A program made the position numbers and the translations under genes. Of a DNA stretch of 37,843 nucleotides, positions 4,146 through 24,892 are shown in pieces. Where the stretch lies: the UHGV virus genome UHGV-1372824. One strand, written 5' to 3'. The notes beneath the pieces are model-generated. The model saw only the letters and a program-made list of their open reading frames with translations. It had not been told where the DNA came from and made no database searches. How positions within the stretch are numbered: position 1 is the first letter of the stretch; each line of letters starts with the position of its first letter. The stretch is from a virus.

Positions 4146-4180
4146 GGAGGGTAGCATTGCTACCCTCTTATTTTTATTTC
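4146..4180. terminator. bidirectional rho-independent terminator
   Basis: Perfect hairpin GAGGGTAGCA/TGCTACCCTC followed by TTATTTTTATTT on + and preceded by an A-rich run (a T-run for the convergent minus-strand gene). Confidence 0.6.
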
Positions 4181-4501
4181 TGCGCTATCCACATAATAAT
4201 AGAGCCGTGATATGAACTGCGAGTTTGTGGGCTTTCCGTGCATGTTCCGGAACAAAAGATTGATGGTCTTATTCCTGTCCTGTTGCCAGCAGAGAGCAAT
4301 GGCATTTCTGATACACCGTTCCACGGAGCAGGGTGTTGTATCATACATCTGCGCTATCTCGTCATATAGGCATTTTAGGTGCCCGCTGTAGTCGTCCCCA
4401 TTTTCAATGCAAATAAGCAAGGCGTTCTCGATGTATTTGAATCCGAGCAGATTCGTCGGCACATTCAAGTCGAATAATGTGTTTCTGATATTGTTTAACA
4501 T
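4160..4501 (-). CDS. stand-alone Spo0A C-terminal (effector/DNA-binding) domain protein
   Basis: TTPCSVERCIRNAIALCW and HGKPTNSQFISRL align with the Spo0A C-terminal motifs TTASRVERAIRHAIEVAW and KAKPTNSEFIA; GGAGGA RBS before the internal ATG at 4501; no receiver domain. Confidence 0.7.
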   Translation of the reverse strand: MLNNIRNTLFDLNVPTNLLGFKYIENALLICIENGDDYSGHLKCLYDEIAQMYDTTPCSVERCIRNAIALCWQQDRNKTINLLFRNMHGKPTNSQFISRLYYYVDSAEIKIRG

Positions 4502-4550
4502 AATTCCTCCTCTAACAAACCAATACCGTAATCTAATCATAAAGAATAGT

Positions 4551-4579
4551 TTGACAACTTAAAATATCGGGCGTAACAT
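4551..4579 (+). promoter_or_regulatory. sigma-A-like promoter (TTGACA-17 nt-TAACAT) for the XRE/S24 gene
   Basis: Read directly from the sequence. Confidence 0.4.
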
Positions 4580-4595
4580 TAAAATTGTAAAATTT

Positions 4596-4620
4596 TGTCG
4601 AATTTATGTCATTGATGACA
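4596..4620. promoter_or_regulatory. canonical Spo0A 0A box TGTCGAA followed by the 14-bp palindrome TGTCATTGATGACA
   Basis: Exact 7-mer at 4596..4602; palindrome at 4607..4620 directly upstream of the RBS of the 4632 gene. Confidence 0.35.
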
Positions 4621-4631
4621 AAGAGGTAATT

Positions 4632-5312
4632 ATGCTCGGCAAGAATATAAAAGCAATGATGCGCATGAGGGGCATCAACTGCAGGGAGCTGTCAGAGGCT
4701 TCTAATGTGCCCATAGAGACAGTGAGAAATATCTACTATGGGAAAGTTAAGGACCCCAAGATATCAACCGTGATAGCCTTTTCAAGGGCTCTTGGCTGTA
4801 CTGTCAATCACCTGATGGGCGATGAGGTGTTCACTTCTAAAGAGATTAACTTAATTGAGAACTACAGGAAGTGCGGAACGCACGGCAAGGCCATTATGTC
4901 GCTAATAGGAAGATATGAAGCAATGACGGCCAAGCACGACGGAGAAACGCCGCACATTGTCCCTTGTTTTGTGCCGGAGGGTGTAATGGTGGACGGCTTC
5001 GAATACAAGAGCAGTGAAGTCGTTGATGTTGAGACGGATATACCGGACGCATACACGGCCATCAAGGTTAACAGCAATAATTATATGCCGTCGTTTTGCA
5101 AAGGCGATATTATCCTTCTTGAGGACCGGTTCCCGGAGAACGGAGAGCGAGCTGTTTTCGTGATAAACGGCGTCGGGTACTTCCGACGATTCATTGAAAA
5201 AGACGGGCGAAACACTATGCGTTCAATCAGTCGTCACGGTGACGATATAGTCATAAAAAGAGCCGACGAGGTAAACTGCGTCGGCACTTATATCGGAGTA
5301 ATTAAGGCGTAA
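4632..5312 (+). CDS. XRE-family HTH regulator with C-terminal S24 (LexA/CI-like) peptidase-fold domain
   Basis: N-terminal HTH ELSEASNVPIETVRNIYYGK; C-terminal NYMPSFCKGDIILLE...VIKRADE has an S24-like fold but the nucleophile Ser position appears substituted. Confidence 0.65.
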   Translation: MLGKNIKAMMRMRGINCRELSEASNVPIETVRNIYYGKVKDPKISTVIAFSRALGCTVNHLMGDEVFTSKEINLIENYRKCGTHGKAIMSLIGRYEAMTAKHDGETPHIVPCFVPEGVMVDGFEYKSSEVVDVETDIPDAYTAIKVNSNNYMPSFCKGDIILLEDRFPENGERAVFVINGVGYFRRFIEKDGRNTMRSISRHGDDIVIKRADEVNCVGTYIGVIKA

Positions 5313-5579
5313 AAGGTAGCGCTTATTTTTTTTGGTAAGTAACGTATAAGTAACAAATTTACTACCAAAACCCTTTAAGAATGGGTATTTTTCAACGATT
5401 TCAGATATTATATCGGTAATTCGCAGATATACATAGAATAAACCAACCCGCAAATTAAAAACAGCTTAAAACCTTGATAAATGTGCATTTTTCAACGCTT
5501 TTAGCTGTTTTTTGTTTTGTCTAAAATGCTTAAAAAACACCATAAAATCTTATTAAAAAGTAACACGTAAGTAACAGAT
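5313..5579. other. candidate attP / integrase arm-site region (AT-rich, repeat-rich intergenic)
   Basis: 25-nt direct repeats AAGTAAC..TAAGTAACA.ATTTA at 5337..5361 and 5558..5582; ATTTTTCAACG.TTT.AG repeated at 5386..5406 and 5485..5507; lies next to the int 3' end. Confidence 0.4.
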
Positions 5580-6752
5580 TTATAGGGTATATTTGTCGAT
5601 TTCCGCAACCAAATCTTCAATCATTGCGTGAGTGTATGTGTCCTGTGTAAGGTCTTGGGCGGAGTGTCCGATAATCTTCTTAACAAGTATCGGATTCATT
5701 CTTGATGCGGCTGCGTATGTTGCGAATGAGTGTCGGCACTCGTGCGGTGTATGCCTCATGCTAAAAGCATCGCACATAGGCTCAAAGAACGATGTCAGGT
5801 ATCCGTTATAGTCAATCTTCTTATCCTTGTTGTTTCTAAAAATATACCCTGTACTATTTAATACAATCCGTCTTTTTATCAGCGGAATGATTTTTTTATG
5901 AACCGGCACGATACGACGTGCGGCGGCTGTCTTTGTTCCTCGCAGATCTAACCATCTTTCCTCAAGGTGTATGTCCTCTGCCTTGAGCTCCAGAAGCTCA
6001 CTGATACGCATTCCTGTATATAGCATAATGACAACCGAATCCATCAGAGCGACGCCGGAAACGGCGCTTTTTCGTTCTGACTTATGCACCCATTCAAGGT
6101 TATCCCACACAACCTGAACCTCTTCCCTTGTGAAAGGTTTCTTCTCTTTTGACTCTTTTTCAGAAGTGATCTCGACGAATTTCGAATAATCTTTTTCAAC
6201 GAAGTTGTTTTTATCGGCAATCTTGTAAATTGCGTGGAACAGTTTCAGCAGATTGTTTTGTGTTGATTTAGACTTATCTGCATATTCATTGACAACATTC
6301 TGCATATGAGTTGTTACTATCTCATGCATCCTCATGTTGTACAGGCTCCCGCACTTCTTGTATGCACCCTCATACGATGCCTTTGCACCCGGCTTCATCT
6401 TGTCAATCTTTTCTGCCTTAAAAATCTCATATACTTGCTGAAATGTGATTGCCCTTTTGTCAAGGTCGTAAGGGTTCTTGTTGTACTCTGCAAGCGCTAT
6501 TTGAGCATCAGCCTGTTTCTCGTAATATCCGATAGCCACTTGATTCTGTTTTCCCTTCGGCTGCCTTGCAATGTATTCGTTATATGCAGTCTCTACCTGT
6601 TGGAACAGCTCCTCTGTCAGAGCCTCTTTCAGGAACGATATATCCCGCTTTTTCACACGCATCTCGTATCCGGTTGTGACGACTACCGCAAAAGGTCGCC
6701 TGCGATTGCCGGACAGCTTCTTGATTGTTCCATATCCGTTAGGATTTTTCAT
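5580..6752 (-). CDS. int: tyrosine site-specific recombinase (phage integrase)
   Basis: 390 aa; C-terminal catalytic region HTPHECRHSFATYAA...IIGHS...TYTH with conserved R..H..R..Y pattern. Confidence 0.9.
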   Translation of the reverse strand: MKNPNGYGTIKKLSGNRRRPFAVVVTTGYEMRVKKRDISFLKEALTEELFQQVETAYNEYIARQPKGKQNQVAIGYYEKQADAQIALAEYNKNPYDLDKRAITFQQVYEIFKAEKIDKMKPGAKASYEGAYKKCGSLYNMRMHEIVTTHMQNVVNEYADKSKSTQNNLLKLFHAIYKIADKNNFVEKDYSKFVEITSEKESKEKKPFTREEVQVVWDNLEWVHKSERKSAVSGVALMDSVVIMLYTGMRISELLELKAEDIHLEERWLDLRGTKTAAARRIVPVHKKIIPLIKRRIVLNSTGYIFRNNKDKKIDYNGYLTSFFEPMCDAFSMRHTPHECRHSFATYAAASRMNPILVKKIIGHSAQDLTQDTYTHAMIEDLVAEIDKYTL

Positions 6753-7481: not shown

Positions 7482-7871
7482 TCATTTTCGTTCTGCTGAG
7501 GAAAATAATTTAAGACTGTCAAGCATAGACTTGACAGCTAACAGCTTACCATTGTCCATCTTGTACAGAGTCAGAACTAACTCACTATACAGCTTATCAG
7601 TTTCCATTCTTATTAAGACGTCCGTAGTGGCGTCTATTTTTTTACTTGTTTCGGGCTTGTCTGATTCCCATCCCATAATATAAGCGGGAGTGGTATTTAG
7701 AGCATTAGCAATAGCAACGATTTTGCTTTGTGGCAATCCGCTTGCGTCTCTTTCAATCTTATTAATGGAAGACCTGGACTTATACCCGAGCTTTTTCGCA
7801 AGGTCGTCCTGCGACATTTTCAAGCATTCACGTCTTTCTTTTATTCTGTCACCAATTTTTCCGTTAGACAT
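7482..7871 (-). CDS. CI-like repressor (XRE-family HTH)
   Basis: HTH LKMSQDDLAKKLGYKSRSSINKIE; divergent from a Cro-like gene; GGAGGG RBS. Confidence 0.7.
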   Translation of the reverse strand: MSNGKIGDRIKERRECLKMSQDDLAKKLGYKSRSSINKIERDASGLPQSKIVAIANALNTTPAYIMGWESDKPETSKKIDATTDVLIRMETDKLYSELVLTLYKMDNGKLLAVKSMLDSLKLFSSAERK

Positions 7872-7895
7872 TTGTGTTTCCCTCCCGTCAACATG

Positions 7896-7924
7896 ATTAT
7901 AACCGCCTGTATAATTTTTTTCAA
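7896..7924 (-). promoter_or_regulatory. candidate repressor-maintenance promoter (TTGAAA-17-TATAAT on the minus strand)
   Basis: Read as the reverse complement of 7896..7924; the -35 overlaps an operator half-site TTCAAC. Confidence 0.4.
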
Positions 7925-7942
7925 CATTTTTTATAAATTATA

Positions 7943-7971
7943 TTGACATAATTACAAAGGGATGGTATTAT
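7943..7971 (+). promoter_or_regulatory. early rightward promoter (TTGACA-17 nt-TATTAT)
   Basis: Near-consensus hexamers with 17-nt spacing, immediately followed by operator palindrome. Confidence 0.55.
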
Positions 7972-7977
7972 TTCGAT

Positions 7978-7994
7978 GTTGAAAAAACTTCAAC
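7978..7994. promoter_or_regulatory. operator palindrome GTTGAA-N5-TTCAAC (O1)
   Basis: Perfect inverted repeat overlapping the predicted transcription start. Confidence 0.5.
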
Positions 7995-8010
7995 AAACAA
8001 CAACGAGAAA

Positions 8011-8027
8011 GTTGAAAGAACTTAAAC
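8011..8027. promoter_or_regulatory. imperfect operator GTTGAA-N5-TTAAAC (O2), 33 bp centre-to-centre from O1
   Basis: One mismatch relative to O1. Confidence 0.4.
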
Positions 8028-8066
8028 AGAGCGGGGCGGCAAATCCCCGCAGGAAGTGAGGGAGAA

Positions 8067-8249
8067 ATGAGATACGCATTATATTTTGTCTGGAATGATG
8101 GCACTAAAGACAGCTTTAATGTAAACAGCGCAAGGGAAAGAGATTTAAACATAAAAGAGATGGTAGCACGACGAAAAGAGTTTAAAGAAATCAGCTATTG
8201 TAAAATTTACGCAAACGGTGAATATAGAGACAGGAAATATGTTTTATAA
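8067..8249 (+). CDS. hypothetical protein, first gene of rightward early operon
   Basis: GGGAG RBS; 60 aa. Confidence 0.4.
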   Translation: MRYALYFVWNDGTKDSFNVNSARERDLNIKEMVARRKEFKEISYCKIYANGEYRDRKYVL

Positions 8250-8307
8250 GGCGGCGGCTAAACCGCCCATACCTAATGCAGCCGAGGACGGTCACAAGCC
8301 CGTGTAA

Positions 8308-8574
8308 ATGCAGAGTGAGTATGGAAAAGGAGGTGTAAATGTGACAAACAGCGAGGAACTGAACAAGTTAATCAAGAAAAGCGGTCTCAAGCGGGGTCAT
8401 ATAGCCGAAGCTATTGGAATCTCATATTACAGCCTGAACAAGAAGATTAATAACGAATCTCCGTTCAAGGCAGGCGAGATTCAGATAATGTGCGAGCTGT
8501 TAGGTATTACCGACCTCGAAGAAAAGGAACGTATTTTTTTTGCGGAAGATGTTGAAAAATCTTCAACAAAATGA
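8308..8574 (+). CDS. Cro-like HTH regulator (likely true start GTG 8341 after AAGGAGG)
   Basis: HTH GLKRGHIAEAIGISYYSLNKKIN. Confidence 0.5.
   Translation: MQSEYGKGGVNVTNSEELNKLIKKSGLKRGHIAEAIGISYYSLNKKINNESPFKAGEIQIMCELLGITDLEEKERIFFAEDVEKSSTK
8551..8567. promoter_or_regulatory. third operator copy GTTGAA-N5-TTCAAC, about 570 bp downstream, inside the 3' end of the Cro-like gene
   Basis: 26-nt context GATGTTGAAAAA(A/T)CTTCAACAAA almost identical to O1. Confidence 0.45.
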
Positions 8575-13492: not shown

Positions 13493-13679
13493 GGTTTATG
13501 TAATAGGCACGGAGCCTGTGCCGTACTGGTGCAGGCGACTGATAACGCCGTACAGGAGGTTGGACGGCGGCACAGGTTACGAATTCCACGGCAAAAGAAC
13601 CGACTTTAATCTTCAAGCCGGCGATGAGCTTGAATGGAACGGCTACGAAATCCACGTGAGGAGTTATGCACATGATTGA
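13485..13679 (+). CDS. hypothetical protein
   Basis: ATG 13485 after AAAGGAGCGGAG. Confidence 0.35.
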   Translation: MVEVYVIGTEPVPYWCRRLITPYRRLDGGTGYEFHGKRTDFNLQAGDELEWNGYEIHVRSYAHD

Positions 13680-14157
13680 TGTCCAGAAATATCTATACAG
13701 ATTGCGAGACATAAACGAGCTGATTATGGGCGTTGCAGATGAGATAGAGCTGTGGAAGGTTATCGCAATGAAGACCACCGCCCAGGTTCAGACGGTCAAC
13801 ATCGGCGGAGAGCTTCACGCAGTTGAAAAGGTCCAATCTTCCGGGAGCGGTGATTCTATGGCGGAAGCTGTCTGCAAGTATGTGGATCTTGAAGCAGAAC
13901 TCGGCGCAGAAACGGCGGCACTCATAGAAGAGCGGCAGAGCATCATTGCCACAATAAAGAAGCTCCCGGCGAGAGAGTACCGGCTGATAAGGCTCATGTA
14001 TGTTGGTACTGTAGCTCGTAGTGGAGAAATCGTATATATGAGCTTGAAACAGGCGGCGGCAGATATGGGGATATCGAGACGGACGGCAACAGGAATACAC
14101 GGGAGCGCCCTTGACAGGCTCAGGAAGATTTTGAAGGAGGATAACAGTGGATATTAA
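13672..14157 (+). CDS. ArpU-family / sigma-70 region-4-like late transcriptional regulator
   Basis: C-terminal LPAREYRLIRLMYVG...MSLKQAAADMGISRRTATGIHGSALDRLRK resembles sigma region 4 / ArpU. Confidence 0.55.
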   Translation: MIDVQKYLYRLRDINELIMGVADEIELWKVIAMKTTAQVQTVNIGGELHAVEKVQSSGSGDSMAEAVCKYVDLEAELGAETAALIEERQSIIATIKKLPAREYRLIRLMYVGTVARSGEIVYMSLKQAAADMGISRRTATGIHGSALDRLRKILKEDNSGY

Positions 14158-16649: not shown

Positions 16650-17036
16650 ATGACGAACAAAGAAGCTATTGAAATGTTCAAGGCTATTATGATGGCAGAA
16701 ATTGAACGCATCCCGTCTCACTACGATGCAGAAGTAGATGACGATGTATATGACGACATAAGTAAGGTTAATGAGATATTGAAACTTAACAAAATTGTCA
16801 GCAAAGCCCTTGAAAAAGCCGACAAGTACAAGTGGCACGACTTGAGGAAGAATCCCGATGATTTGCCCGAAGCTGACGGAAACAGCGAGAGTGATTATGT
16901 ACTTGTTATGATTGGTACACCTGAATGGAACAGTTGGGAACAGGCTTATTACCATCACGGCAAAAGGCTGTGGTCAACATATGAGCAGAATGTATTCGCT
17001 TGGCGATATATTGAACCGTTTGAGGAGGAAGAATGA
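16650..17036 (+). CDS. hypothetical protein
   Basis: ATG 16650 after GGGAGGGAATAGA. Confidence 0.45.
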   Translation: MTNKEAIEMFKAIMMAEIERIPSHYDAEVDDDVYDDISKVNEILKLNKIVSKALEKADKYKWHDLRKNPDDLPEADGNSESDYVLVMIGTPEWNSWEQAYYHHGKRLWSTYEQNVFAWRYIEPFEEEE

Positions 17037-17212
17037 TTATTGAAAAGACAGGGCTGTACGGAGAACACGCTCAAATAGTGCCGGAGTGTCTATTCGACAA
17101 GACGGTGCCGTGCAGACTTCATCCTTGTTGTGAAGCCCAAAATGTTAGCTGTTGTCACGCGTGCATATACCGCAAGTGTCCGAGCAGATGCGAGAAAGGA
17201 ACGAAGAAATGA
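17033..17212 (+). CDS. small Cys-rich protein (59 aa)
   Basis: ATGA overlaps at both ends; CRLHPCCEAQNVSCCHACIYRKCPSRC. Confidence 0.35.
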   Translation: MIIEKTGLYGEHAQIVPECLFDKTVPCRLHPCCEAQNVSCCHACIYRKCPSRCEKGTKK

Positions 17213-24274: not shown

Positions 24275-24892
24275 ATGAAGAAACACTTACTTGATTTACA
24301 GCTCTTTGCGGATGAGGGAGCTGACGGCTCGGAAACTCAGGAGCCTGCAAACCCAAACAAGGAGACCAAAGAGGCAGAGGAGAAAGAGAACGAGCCGAAG
24401 CCTGAGAAGAAATACTCGGACGATGATGTGGACAAGATTCTGAACAAGAAGTTCGCTGAATGGGAGAAGAAGAAGCAGAAAGAAGTTGACGAGGCAAAGA
24501 AACTGGCGGATATGAACGCAAAGGAAAAAGCCGAGTATGAACGAGACAAGCTGCAGAAAGAGCTTGATGCGCTCAGGGAAAAAGACTCCCTGTCAGAAAT
24601 GACAAAGACAGCCCGCAAGATGCTGTCAGACGAGGGTGTAAGTGTTTCTGATGATGTACTGAGCATGATTGTCTCTACAGATGCGGAAAAGACAAAGGCG
24701 GCAGTTGATGCCTTTGCAAAAGCATTCAACGAGGCAGTTGAAGCGGCAGTAAAAGAGAAGCTGAAGGGCAACCCGCCAAAGAAGGGAACCGGCGGCGGCG
24801 CTCCGATGACGAAAGAACAGATCCTTGCAATCAAGGACAACGAAGCACGTCAGAAGGCGATGCTCGAAAACAGAGAACTATTTAATTTTTAG
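24275..24892 (+). CDS. scaffolding protein with N-terminal DLQLFA motif
   Basis: E/K-rich coiled-coil; sits between the portal/Mu F genes and the capsid gene. Confidence 0.65.
   Translation: MKKHLLDLQLFADEGADGSETQEPANPNKETKEAEEKENEPKPEKKYSDDDVDKILNKKFAEWEKKKQKEVDEAKKLADMNAKEKAEYERDKLQKELDALREKDSLSEMTKTARKMLSDEGVSVSDDVLSMIVSTDAEKTKAAVDAFAKAFNEAVEAAVKEKLKGNPPKKGTGGGAPMTKEQILAIKDNEARQKAMLENRELFNF

Follow-up and report, generated by a model that had tools for sequence, protein, structure and literature searches.

Our analysis reveals that the window, meaning the whole 37,843-nucleotide stretch of viral DNA that was analysed (UHGV-1372824), encodes a complete stand-alone Spo0A effector (DNA-binding) domain, and that the gene for this 113-residue protein is paired with a divergent gene for an XRE/pseudo-S24 repressor, across a 130-bp gap that holds a 0A box and a palindrome. 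We read the two genes as an autonomous two-regulator cassette that may act as a transcriptional toggle, with a probability of about 0.45; the output of such a toggle would most likely be a phosphorylation-independent 0A-box binder. The locus comprises the following elements:

4146 to 4168, plus strand: terminator hairpin of the lysis operon, with a 10-pair stem whose right arm holds the stop codon of the Spo0A_C gene
4160 to 4501, minus strand: Spo0A_C gene, 113-aa product (Pfam, NCBIfam and PDB matches and an AF2 model)
4506 to 4510, minus strand: Shine-Dalgarno (SD) sequence GGAGG of the Spo0A_C gene, 4 nt 5′ of the ATG (read directly from the sequence)
4551 to 4579, plus strand: predicted promoter of the XRE/S24 gene, P_xre, TTGACA-17-TAACAT, predicted start near 4586 (consensus scan, 10 of 12 positions)
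4563 to 4612, minus strand: candidate promoters of the Spo0A_C gene, in a region overlapping P_xre on the opposite strand (consensus scan)
4596 to 4602, plus strand: exact 0A box TGTCGAA, in extended form TTTTGTCGAAT (motif scan)
4607 to 4620, no strand assigned: 14-bp palindrome TGTCAT-TG-ATGACA (TGTCATTGATGACA), beside the SD sequence of the XRE/S24 gene (palindrome scan)
4632 to 5312, plus strand: divergent partner gene, 226-aa XRE-type HTH repressor with a LexA/CI-like C-terminal domain (Pfam HTH_26 and Peptidase_S24)
5305 to 5324, plus strand: terminator-like hairpin 3′ of the XRE/S24 gene (hairpin scan)
5580 to 6752, minus strand: tyrosine integrase gene (Pfam Phage_integrase)

The Spo0A_C gene extends from an ATG at 4501–4499 to a TAG stop at 4162–4160, and the gene call on the source contig gives the same 113 residues, one fewer than the 114 first reported. 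An alternative start at 4540, which would yield a 126-aa ORF and has no SD sequence, was rejected. The profile search proposed in the preliminary description returned a match to Pfam Spo0A_C (PF08769) with E = 2.5e-24 and 85.7 bits (cut-off 25), covering profile positions 1–103 of 104. TIGR02875, the Spo0A equivalog model, is matched at 70.8 bits (cut-off 200) and only at positions 151–249 of 262, indicating that the receiver domain is absent; the view of the product as a receiver-less, stand-alone effector domain thus holds. The protein has neither the receiver with a phospho-acceptor Asp nor the TIGR02875 score that would mark a Spo0A orthologue. PDB entries 1FC3 and 1LQ1 match it with E of about 1e-12, and its VERcIRnAI and KPTNSqFI segments align with VERAIRHAI and KPTNSEFI of the two structures. 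The AF2 model (pLDDT 85.8) adopts the six-helix fold of the solved Spo0A effector domain and is aligned by Foldseek with 1LQ1_C at a TM of 0.83 and an rmsd of 1.8 Å over 104 columns, with E above 0.8 for the next unrelated fold.

The recognition-helix region and the KPTNS motif, which had been described as kept, are indeed retained relative to 1FC3/1LQ1. Specifically, E61, R62, R65 and K90–F96 align with B. subtilis E213, R214, R217 and KPTNSxF, and the residues at these positions are invariant or nearly so in alignments of relatives. In B. subtilis Spo0A, E213, R214 and R217 are reported to read the 0A box (Zhao et al. 2002). The counterparts of B. subtilis R211 and H218 are S and N in the 113-aa protein. 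This lineage also has S233 replaced by N and a 4-residue deletion in the loop aligned with the B. subtilis region around V240, which is the sigma-A-activating region of Spo0A. Together, the deletion and the S233N change suggest that the protein may be a repressor or competitor and not an activator.

The partner matches Peptidase_S24 at 33.4 bits (cut-off 23.3) over profile positions 30–115 of 116, its family profile matches LexA 3K2Z with E = 8.6e-4, and its HTH segment is nearly invariant among orthologues. The position of the catalytic Ser is occupied by N150 (N, D, R or L across ten orthologues) and that of the catalytic Lys by R185, which is invariant in orthologues; both positions were placed by hhalign to LexA/CI sequences and, independently, by an hmmsearch alignment to PDB 3K2Z. 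Because the S24 domain lacks both catalytic residues, self-cleavage of the partner under SOS is predicted to be unlikely. The XRE/S24 assignment of the preliminary description therefore stands at the level of the two profile matches, but the self-cleaving dyad is missing, which corrects the expectation that the partner is linked to the SOS response. In the linker, where an Ala-Gly cleavage site would be expected, the partner contains an invariant IPC..P.G, in which the residue before Gly is variable and where the LexA alignment is of low confidence.

The control region between the two genes contains a well-conserved promoter for the partner. In particular, P_xre has identical hexamers and spacing in 10 of the 11 lineages aligned, between which protein identity is only about 42%, and the predicted promoter is strongly supported by this conservation. 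On the opposite strand, the consensus scan gives TTTACA(4591..4586)-17-GATATT(4568..4563) and ATGACA(4612..4607)-17-TACAAT(4589..4584) as candidate promoters of the Spo0A_C gene, with scores of 9 and 10 of 12. Consensus-level candidates for this promoter number three, none of them kept in all lineages or as well as P_xre; an ATAT inside the P_xre spacer is invariant in all lineages and agrees with a −10 element of the opposite strand. The TGTCAT/ATGACA palindrome is located, as had been noted, just 5′ of the XRE/S24 gene, and palindromes of the type TGTCA-N4-TGACA are present in essentially every aligned lineage in the same place, between P_xre and the start codon of the partner. We infer that the palindrome is a candidate operator of the XRE/S24 dimer. 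Its TGTCA half-sites have TGTC in common with the 0A box. At the other end of the Spo0A_C gene, the stem of the lysis-operon hairpin is followed by TATTTTTATT, with a T-run on the plus strand only; the structure previously taken for a bidirectional terminator beside the pair is the terminator of the lysis operon and is not clearly bidirectional.

The exact 0A box, confirmed at the position first given for it within the divergent gap, is located at about +10 to +16 of P_xre, 11 bp before the palindrome (start to start), and matches the canonical host site exactly, flanking TTTGTCGAA included. [quoted passage not shown] In 7 of 27 clusters, the canonical spo0A genes of the same sample are preceded by tandem 0A boxes, and thus a 0A box at a Spo0A-family gene fits known autoregulatory logic.

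Across the whole window, TGTCGAA occurs 8 times versus 5.4 ± 2.3 expected (19 of 100 shuffles reach 8) and is not enriched; the remaining seven copies are all within ORFs. The degenerate TGNCGAA is mildly high (33 versus 20.6 expected), with nearly all copies intragenic. A copy at 17093 was considered as a second non-coding box and rejected because a small ORF with its own SD sequence, starting at 17034, contains it. Since the 7-mer is not enriched window-wide, the significance of the box comes from positional conservation in related cassettes only. Specifically, 8 of 17 cassette lineages (including the later-found L183, L192 and L197) carry it on the same strand and in the same place, upstream of the palindrome by one or two turns of the helix (spacings of 11, 11, 11, 22, 22, 22, 21 and 22 bp). 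In the first 11 lineages, 5 carriers were observed; shuffling with dinucleotide content preserved predicts 0.18, and none of 5000 shuffles gave as many as 5. The frequency comparison suggested in the preliminary description therefore gives a divided answer, namely chance level in the window but a conserved position among lineages, and the box in the divergent control region is, as judged from these alignments, non-random.

We consider it very unlikely that the box is incidental, with TTCGACA being a near-copy of the −35 hexamer TTGACA in an AT-rich promoter and the protein having drifted to another specificity, such as the TGTCA palindrome. The window-wide count, the nine lineages that lack the box, the S and N at the R211 and H218 positions, and the coincidence of the box in L002 and L020 with what may be the −35 hexamer of a Spo0A_C promoter candidate would all be compatible with such an origin, but it would have to account for five carriers where shuffling predicts 0.18, for the box being on one strand and in a fixed helical phase to the palindrome in 8 of 8 carriers, and for the invariance of the E213/R214/R217-equivalent residues in family alignments.

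The box cannot be essential to the core circuit of the cassette, because 9 of the 17 lineages lack it in spite of an invariant recognition helix. Occurrence in some lineages only is what would be expected of an accessory input, as distinct from a core operator, and the site is identical to that of the host down to its flanks. Both observations point to a different reading, possible though doubtful, in which the box would be an input for host Spo0A~P: rising Spo0A~P would shut the partner off and free the Spo0A_C gene, resulting in a feed-forward lock or in a timing signal for the phage in a sporulating cell. The cassette protein has the same recognition helix, and for this reason sequence cannot separate the host protein from the cassette protein as the binder. 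The pooled 17 lineages, with the box in 6 of 8 cassettes on phages and in 2 of 9 on chromosomes, would also agree with a host-state sensor, but this trend towards phages is post hoc (Fisher one-sided about 0.04) and is not relied on. Its counterpart as a prediction, that the box is a phage-specific addition, was drawn from the first 13 lineages and failed in six further look-ups, with phage L193 lacking the box and chromosomal L197 carrying it.

The pair itself recurs well beyond this phage. It was present in 22 of 178 fetched loci and, with later look-ups, in a total of 17 lineages, some on phages that are unrelated to each other and some on chromosomes of gut Clostridia, in ordinary neighbourhoods. 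Identity among these lineages is 34–68% for Spo0A_C and 41–76% for the partner, the genes flanking the cassette are unrelated from lineage to lineage, and look-ups of partner homologues found a divergent Spo0A_C gene 131–176 bp away in 8 of 9 cases. About half of the cassette lineages have housekeeping genes around them and no phage genes within 4–5 kb. The pair is therefore not phage-specific, and a description of the protein as a phage-borne hijacker is too narrow. More widely, 12,499 clusters at 50% identity match the Spo0A_C profile, many of them stand-alone.

The window is a complete circular genome of a 37.8-kb temperate phage (the 37,962-bp source contig exceeds it by a 119-bp k-mer overlap), with genes for tail, lysis, integrase, SSB and Gp157, and the cassette has the lysis genes on one side and the attP/int end on the other. 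A search for near-identical DNA among GenBank phages found none, and only 12 phage records, all of uncultured faecal phages, encode a homologue (31–37% identity). PHROGs already includes a family of such truncated homologues, phrog_24603, annotated as function unknown; PADLOC defence-system models gave nothing relevant in the window, and a tRNA search at the att-like gap gave none.

Several of these phage contexts would suit a regulator internal to the phage or element, in which the locus would be a second immunity/antirepressor region, Spo0A_C would be its small second DNA-binding protein, and host sporulation would be unaffected. The divergent genes with overlapping promoters resemble phage switches, and the layout is comparable to P22 immI or cI/cro pairs; moreover, the cassette adjoins the integrase gene in six phage lineages (WIN, L004/L186, L002, L020, L183 and L192), in 81 loci of one related gut phage, the most abundant, the Spo0A_C gene comes after an AntA antirepressor gene, and the divergent partner in relative L122 is XRE only. 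We regard a purely internal role as unlikely, since the phage already has a cI/cro-like pair of its own at 7482–8574, separate from the cassette, and about half of the lineages are in the phage-free chromosomal settings described above. Furthermore, a scan of the window found no non-coding 0A box and no intergenic palindrome outside the cassette, and thus no other target in the phage is evident on which such a regulator could act.

We return to the two-regulator toggle as the preferred reading. Because the 113-aa protein has no receiver domain or phospho-acceptor, its regulation must be transcriptional. The partner would dimerise through its catalytically dead LexA-like domain and bind the palindrome, thereby regulating its own gene and holding off the overlapping promoter of the Spo0A_C gene on the opposite strand. 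The Spo0A_C protein, once made, would bind the 0A box just downstream of the P_xre start in unphosphorylated form and shut the partner off, and this shut-off would lock the state. The protein would next occupy 0A boxes of the host Spo0A regulon, as a mimic of, or a competitor with, Spo0A~P. In the phage, the cassette would be cargo at the attP-proximal end, beside the lysis genes.

A broader form of the toggle reading, which we rate as improbable, is a "phosphorelay bypass" switch: the pair, horizontally mobile, present on phages and fixed in many chromosomes of gut Clostridia, would flip cells into or out of the Spo0A-ON programme without the sporulation kinases, on a signal sensed by the dead-protease domain of the partner. 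If true, gut Firmicutes would have in such a switch a second level, so far unrecognised, at which their sporulation and transmission are controlled. A large share of these bacteria depend on sporulation for their persistence and their spread between hosts, Spo0A is its single entry point, and receiver-less Spo0A copies are very common. The locus offers a compact handle on them, with two genes, one 130-bp control region and three defined elements in about 1.2 kb, and could show whether 0A boxes are bound by proteins of this kind, whether their effect on the Spo0A regulon is activation or a block, and how they are controlled.

Effector-domain-only spo0A genes in human-gut phages, and the idea of a phosphorylation bypass, were reported by Schwartz, Rebolleda-Gomez and Lennon (mBio 2023; PMC10294663), who present 29 virome sequences as an alignment. 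The hypothesis of the preliminary description, that such a gene might reprogram host sporulation or couple to host Spo0A~P, is likewise already in print there for truncated spo0A genes of phages. A term search of that paper gave no neighbours, 0A boxes or prophages, and repressor and LexA as gene-table entries only. The genes described there and here are both effector-only, both in phages of gut Firmicutes, and both proposed to be independent of the phosphorelay; the partner gene, the architecture of the control region and the chromosomal copies are additions here. The Spo0A_C domain is also known to be enriched on gut mobile elements (PMC6907783). A literature search on orphan Spo0A_C, or on its pairing with a repressor, gave nothing beyond these two survey papers. 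Thus, the truncated phage gene has already been reported, while the conserved cassette that it forms with its partner seems to have been undescribed until now.

Compared with Spo0A itself (TIGR02875; 1LQ1, 1FC3), the phage protein has in common the C-terminal fold, the helix-turn-helix, VERxIRxAI and KPTNSxF, and, like autoregulated spo0A genes, its gene has a 0A box at its own locus. It differs in having no receiver or phospho-acceptor, in its identity of about 30% to the solved domains and, in this lineage, in the shortened loop at the sigma-A-activating region. The canonical neighbourhood of spo0A is spoIVB-recN, whereas the phage gene is paired with a repressor gene.

The position of the box also has a counterpart in the control of abrB, which B. 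subtilis Spo0A represses through 0A boxes downstream of the transcription start. Binding of Spo0A to abrB has been shown (PMC3485338). In both systems a 0A box is located just downstream of the start of a repressor-gene promoter, and a Spo0A-type protein bound there would block transcription of the repressor and thereby de-repress its targets. The cassette differs in having a single exact box instead of tandem boxes, and an XRE-type repressor instead of AbrB.

In architecture, the cassette resembles the lambda CI/Cro and P2/186 switches, in which a repressor and a small second regulator have divergent or face-to-face promoters. It combines two divergently transcribed DNA-binding proteins, about 130 bp of shared control DNA, overlapping candidate promoters and a palindrome as putative operator, and its repressor has an XRE HTH and a LexA/CI-like C-terminal domain. 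Unlike in these switches, the cassette repressor has no protease dyad and a single palindrome is evident. In addition, the second protein has the Spo0A_C fold in place of Cro, Cox or Apl, and the cassette is distinct from the main immunity region of the phage and occurs outside phages too.

The minus-strand ORF at window 4160..4540 (126 aa) contains an internal ATG (4501-4499) with GGAGG 5′ of it at 4510-4506, and a start at this ATG yields a 113-aa product, MLNNIRN...KIRG, identical to the public gene call for the source contig. The product matches Pfam Spo0A_C over profile positions 1-103 of 104 (E=2.5e-24; 85.7 bits, cut-off 25), and it matches the NCBIfam equivalog for full-length Spo0A at positions 151-249 of 262 only, with a score of 70.8 vs a cut-off of 200, indicating that the receiver domain is absent. 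The preliminary description, which had proposed a profile search as a check, is thus upheld in the identity of its stand-alone effector gene and in the missing receiver; its length of 114 aa is corrected to 113 aa. The sole phmmer matches in the PDB are the solved Spo0A effector domains 1FC3 and 1LQ1 (E about 1e-12). An AlphaFold2 model (pLDDT 85.8) superposes on DNA-bound 1LQ1_C with a TM score of 0.83 and an rmsd of 1.8 Å, and no unrelated fold matches this model better than E 0.8. In the PDB alignment, E61, R62, and R65 correspond to recognition-helix residues E213, R214, and R217 of B. subtilis Spo0A, and K90-F96 corresponds to the KPTNSEF signature of Spo0A; these residues are said to contact bases in the 1LQ1 complex. 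B. subtilis R211 and H218 are replaced by S and N. In the window lineage, four residues are missing from the loop aligned with Y238-S241, and S233 is replaced by N; this region is the σA-activating surface of B. subtilis Spo0A, so the window protein may or may not be able to activate transcription. The presence of a stand-alone Spo0A effector gene in the window, in identity and in fold, is confirmed.

The control DNA between this gene and its divergent XRE/S24 partner contains the following elements, the promoters being predicted by consensus scan:

4557..4530, minus strand: candidate Spo0A_C promoter, TTGTCA-16-TAGATT
4551 to 4579, toward the XRE/S24 gene: partner promoter, TTGACA(4551)-17-TAACAT(4579)
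4591..4563, minus strand: candidate Spo0A_C promoter, TTTACA-17-GATATT
4612..4584, minus strand: candidate Spo0A_C promoter, ATGACA-17-TACAAT
4596-4602: exact 0A box, TGTCGAA
4607-4620: perfect palindrome, TGTCATTGATGACA

The exact 0A box and the palindrome are located where the preliminary description had placed them, in the divergent control DNA. Two of the three candidate Spo0A_C promoters overlap the partner promoter core, the third sharing its −35 hexamer alone, and the 0A box spans about +10 to +16 relative to the predicted partner promoter start. The hairpin at 4146-4168, which has a T-run on the + strand only, is the predicted terminator of the lysis operon, with the Spo0A_C stop codon inside; its earlier reading as a bidirectional terminator is supported for the + strand only.

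The partner has a Pfam S24 match above cut-off, and its sequence indicates that it is no working S24 peptidase. Specifically, hhalign comparison with E. coli LexA, B. subtilis LexA, and λ CI aligns the nucleophile S119 with N150 and K156 with R185, and, independently, a partner-family profile matched to PDB LexA 3K2Z (E=8.6e-4) places the GESM Ser opposite the same Asn. Among ten partner orthologues, the Ser position is N, D, R, or L, and R185 is invariant. Because the catalytic positions are replaced, RecA-stimulated self-cleavage appears unlikely, and the S24-like domain probably serves for dimerisation or for sensing something else. Cys residues in IPC (110-112) and YCKGD (155-159) never vary in the partner family, nor does an NRFP..GE motif of the dead S24 domain, which suggests a conserved non-proteolytic function, e.g. 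ligand, redox, or partner binding. The HTH segment is nearly invariant, in agreement with the conserved palindrome; among solved structures, a Lactobacillus prophage repressor and SinR are closest to it.

The pairing is conserved. Spo0A_C patterns retrieved 178 loci from collections of viruses, genomes, and metagenomes; in 22 of these, a homologue of the window XRE/S24 gene is divergent from, and immediately upstream of, a stand-alone Spo0A_C gene. Partner homologues form 67 clusters, and look-ups from the partner side found a divergent Spo0A_C gene 131-176 bp away in 8/9. The exception is a phage with the partner and no Spo0A_C gene (L196); its control region (L196:4400-5003) has two copies of TCATTTTCGACA at a distance of 43 bp, in which the 0A core is on the opposite strand, and one copy is part of the palindrome. 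In all, the cassette is found in 17 lineages, with 34-68% (Spo0A_C) and 41-76% (partner) identity to the window proteins and with flanking genes that are unrelated between lineages. Eight lineages are phages or prophages, and six of these adjoin an integrase: the cassette lies beside a tyrosine-type integrase in the window and in loci L004/L186, L183, and L192, and beside a large serine-type integrase in L002 and L020; it lies beside a Resolvase-family serine recombinase in L193 and a terminase in L001. The other nine lie among ordinary genes (e.g. leuA-like/clpB, rpsI/rplM, thrS, Na/Pi cotransporter/trkAH, azlCD, LytTR/ABC/GNAT, cation ATPase). Two distinct chromosomal lineages, L100 and L197, lie beside thrS in differing local arrangements, with an exact 0A box in L197 only. 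As a unit the cassette is autonomous, and it is no speciality of phages.

Alignment of control regions from 11 lineages reveals conserved elements in a conserved geometry. The partner promoter TTGACA-17-TAACAT is present in 10/11, a TGTCA-N4-TGACA-type palindrome beside the partner SD in 11/11, and an ATAT within the promoter spacer is invariant; since promoter spacers are normally unconstrained, the ATAT fits a −10 element of an opposite-strand promoter. Over the whole window, TGTCGAA is not enriched (8 observed vs 5.4 ± 2.3 expected, the remaining seven all within ORFs), which, on frequency alone, counts against the proposal of the preliminary description. In the control regions, five of the 11 lineages examined first have an exact 0A box vs 0.18 expected, and 0/5000 dinucleotide-preserving shuffles reach 5. 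L183, L192, and L197 bring the carriers to eight, and all eight carry it on the coding strand of the partner, with the partner −10 element on one side and the palindrome on the other, at start-to-start distances from the palindrome of 11, 11, 11, 22, 22, 22, 21, and 22 bp, i.e., one or two helical turns. An incidental box is hard to square with the shuffle result and this fixed phasing, and we consider it very improbable. With its flanks the box reads TTTGTCGAA, which we take to match the extended Bacillus 0A-box consensus; full-length spo0A clusters in the same sample have exact upstream boxes in 7/27, often in tandem with 10-bp spacing.

We favor, at a probability of roughly 0.45, a reading of the cassette as a toggle with phosphorylation-free action on host 0A boxes; we infer which protein binds each site, in which direction regulation goes, and any effect on the host. 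A partner dimer on the palindrome would autoregulate and would block the overlapping Spo0A_C promoter. Spo0A_C protein would bind the 0A box a short way past the partner transcription start, on the same helix face as the palindrome, and so would turn the partner off and lock its own expression on; it would then act at host 0A boxes without phosphorylation. The isolated DNA-binding domain of genuine Spo0A binds real targets unphosphorylated, and both Bacillus and C. difficile Spo0A recognise TGTCGAA via G2, C4, and G5 (PMC3485338). The main alternative, in which host Spo0A~P acts on the cassette through the box, seems unlikely to us. Sequence alone does not distinguish host Spo0A~P from the cassette protein as binder.

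The box was present in 5/6 phage vs 1/7 chromosomal lineages among the first 13. Phage specificity was recorded as a prediction, and six further partner homologues were then looked up; these gave two phages, with the box in one of them, and two chromosomal cassettes, again with the box in one. A phage-specific addition was not borne out by this hold-out; the pooled counts are 6/8 phage vs 2/9 chromosomal (one-sided Fisher about 0.04, a post hoc comparison).

The window corresponds to a metagenomic contig of 37,962 bp from which a k-mer overlap of 119 bp is removed, which indicates a complete circular genome. Tail fibre genes, holin, CHAP/SH3 lysin, an XhlA-like gene, and the terminator precede Spo0A_C (−) and XRE/S24 (+); there follow a repeat-rich attP-like gap, tyrosine integrase (−), lipoprotein (−), XRE cI-like (−), and cro-like (+) genes, and then, on the + strand throughout, the early, replication, packaging, and tail genes. 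By its place in this order the pair is cargo at the attP-proximal end, apart from the phage's own immunity genes. The gap (5313-5579) contains a 42-nt direct repeat (5368-5409/5468-5509; 100 bp apart, 76% identical) and a 32-nt inverted repeat (5452-5483/5486-5517), probably integrase arm sites or attP; there are no tRNA genes in the whole window. TGTCA-N4-TGACA (≤1 mismatch) occurs seven times in the window vs 1.6 expected (0/100 shuffles reach 7), the copies outside the cassette (17327, 24591, 27266, 27858, 35922, and 36246) all lying within ORFs, 24591 within ORF 24275..24892. In the early/middle region, a 161-163-aa ORF (13666-14157, +) with a weak Sigma70_r4 match in the source contig annotation may encode a phage sigma-like or late regulator.

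With a profile built from the window Spo0A_C protein and its seven closest relatives (E<=1e-3), 12,499 clusters at 50% identity match, including many stand-alone 117-190-aa proteins and many with 2-8 tandem Spo0A_C domains. Receiver-less tandem arrays include database proteins P0008 (454 aa), P0014 (221 aa), P0019 (849 aa), and P0042 (959 aa), in which VER.IR is kept in some repeats and lost in others; to our knowledge, such arrays have not been described. One phage syntenic with the window (L180, region L180:5400-6480; Gp157, SSB, PDDEXK, CHAP lysin) lacks the entire XRE/S24-integrase-cI block, and its Spo0A_C ORF starts from TTG with no SD and with the first ~8 residues missing; the phage has the appearance of a deletion derivative from which the lysogeny module was lost. 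In a very abundant gut phage group (L024-L098; 81 loci on about 60-kb IMG/VR contigs), a 126-aa stand-alone Spo0A_C gene lies directly 3′ of an AntA/AntB antirepressor gene in the same direction, with neither the XRE/S24 partner nor an exact upstream 0A box. A role purely internal to the element would fit these AntA-linked relatives and the switch-like layout, but it leaves the chromosomal copies and the absence of other targets in the window phage without explanation, and we hold it to be decidedly unlikely.

A receiver-less Spo0A on a gut phage is no new finding: in mBio 2023 (PMC10294663), Schwartz et al. described human-gut virome spo0A homologues (n=29) truncated to the effector domain and proposed that they possibly need no host signals. 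By term search, that article does not mention neighbours, 0A boxes, or prophages, and has repressor and LexA as gene-table entries only. Jiang et al. (PLoS One 2019, PMC6907783) found an enrichment of PF08769 among mobile elements of gut Firmicutes, and the PHROGs family, phrog_24603, is annotated 'unknown function'. Our literature search found no experimental work on receiver-less Spo0A copies. No earlier description appears to exist of the cassette architecture, of the phased 0A box that recurs in it, or of the dead-protease partner; these features open the published hypothesis to direct testing.
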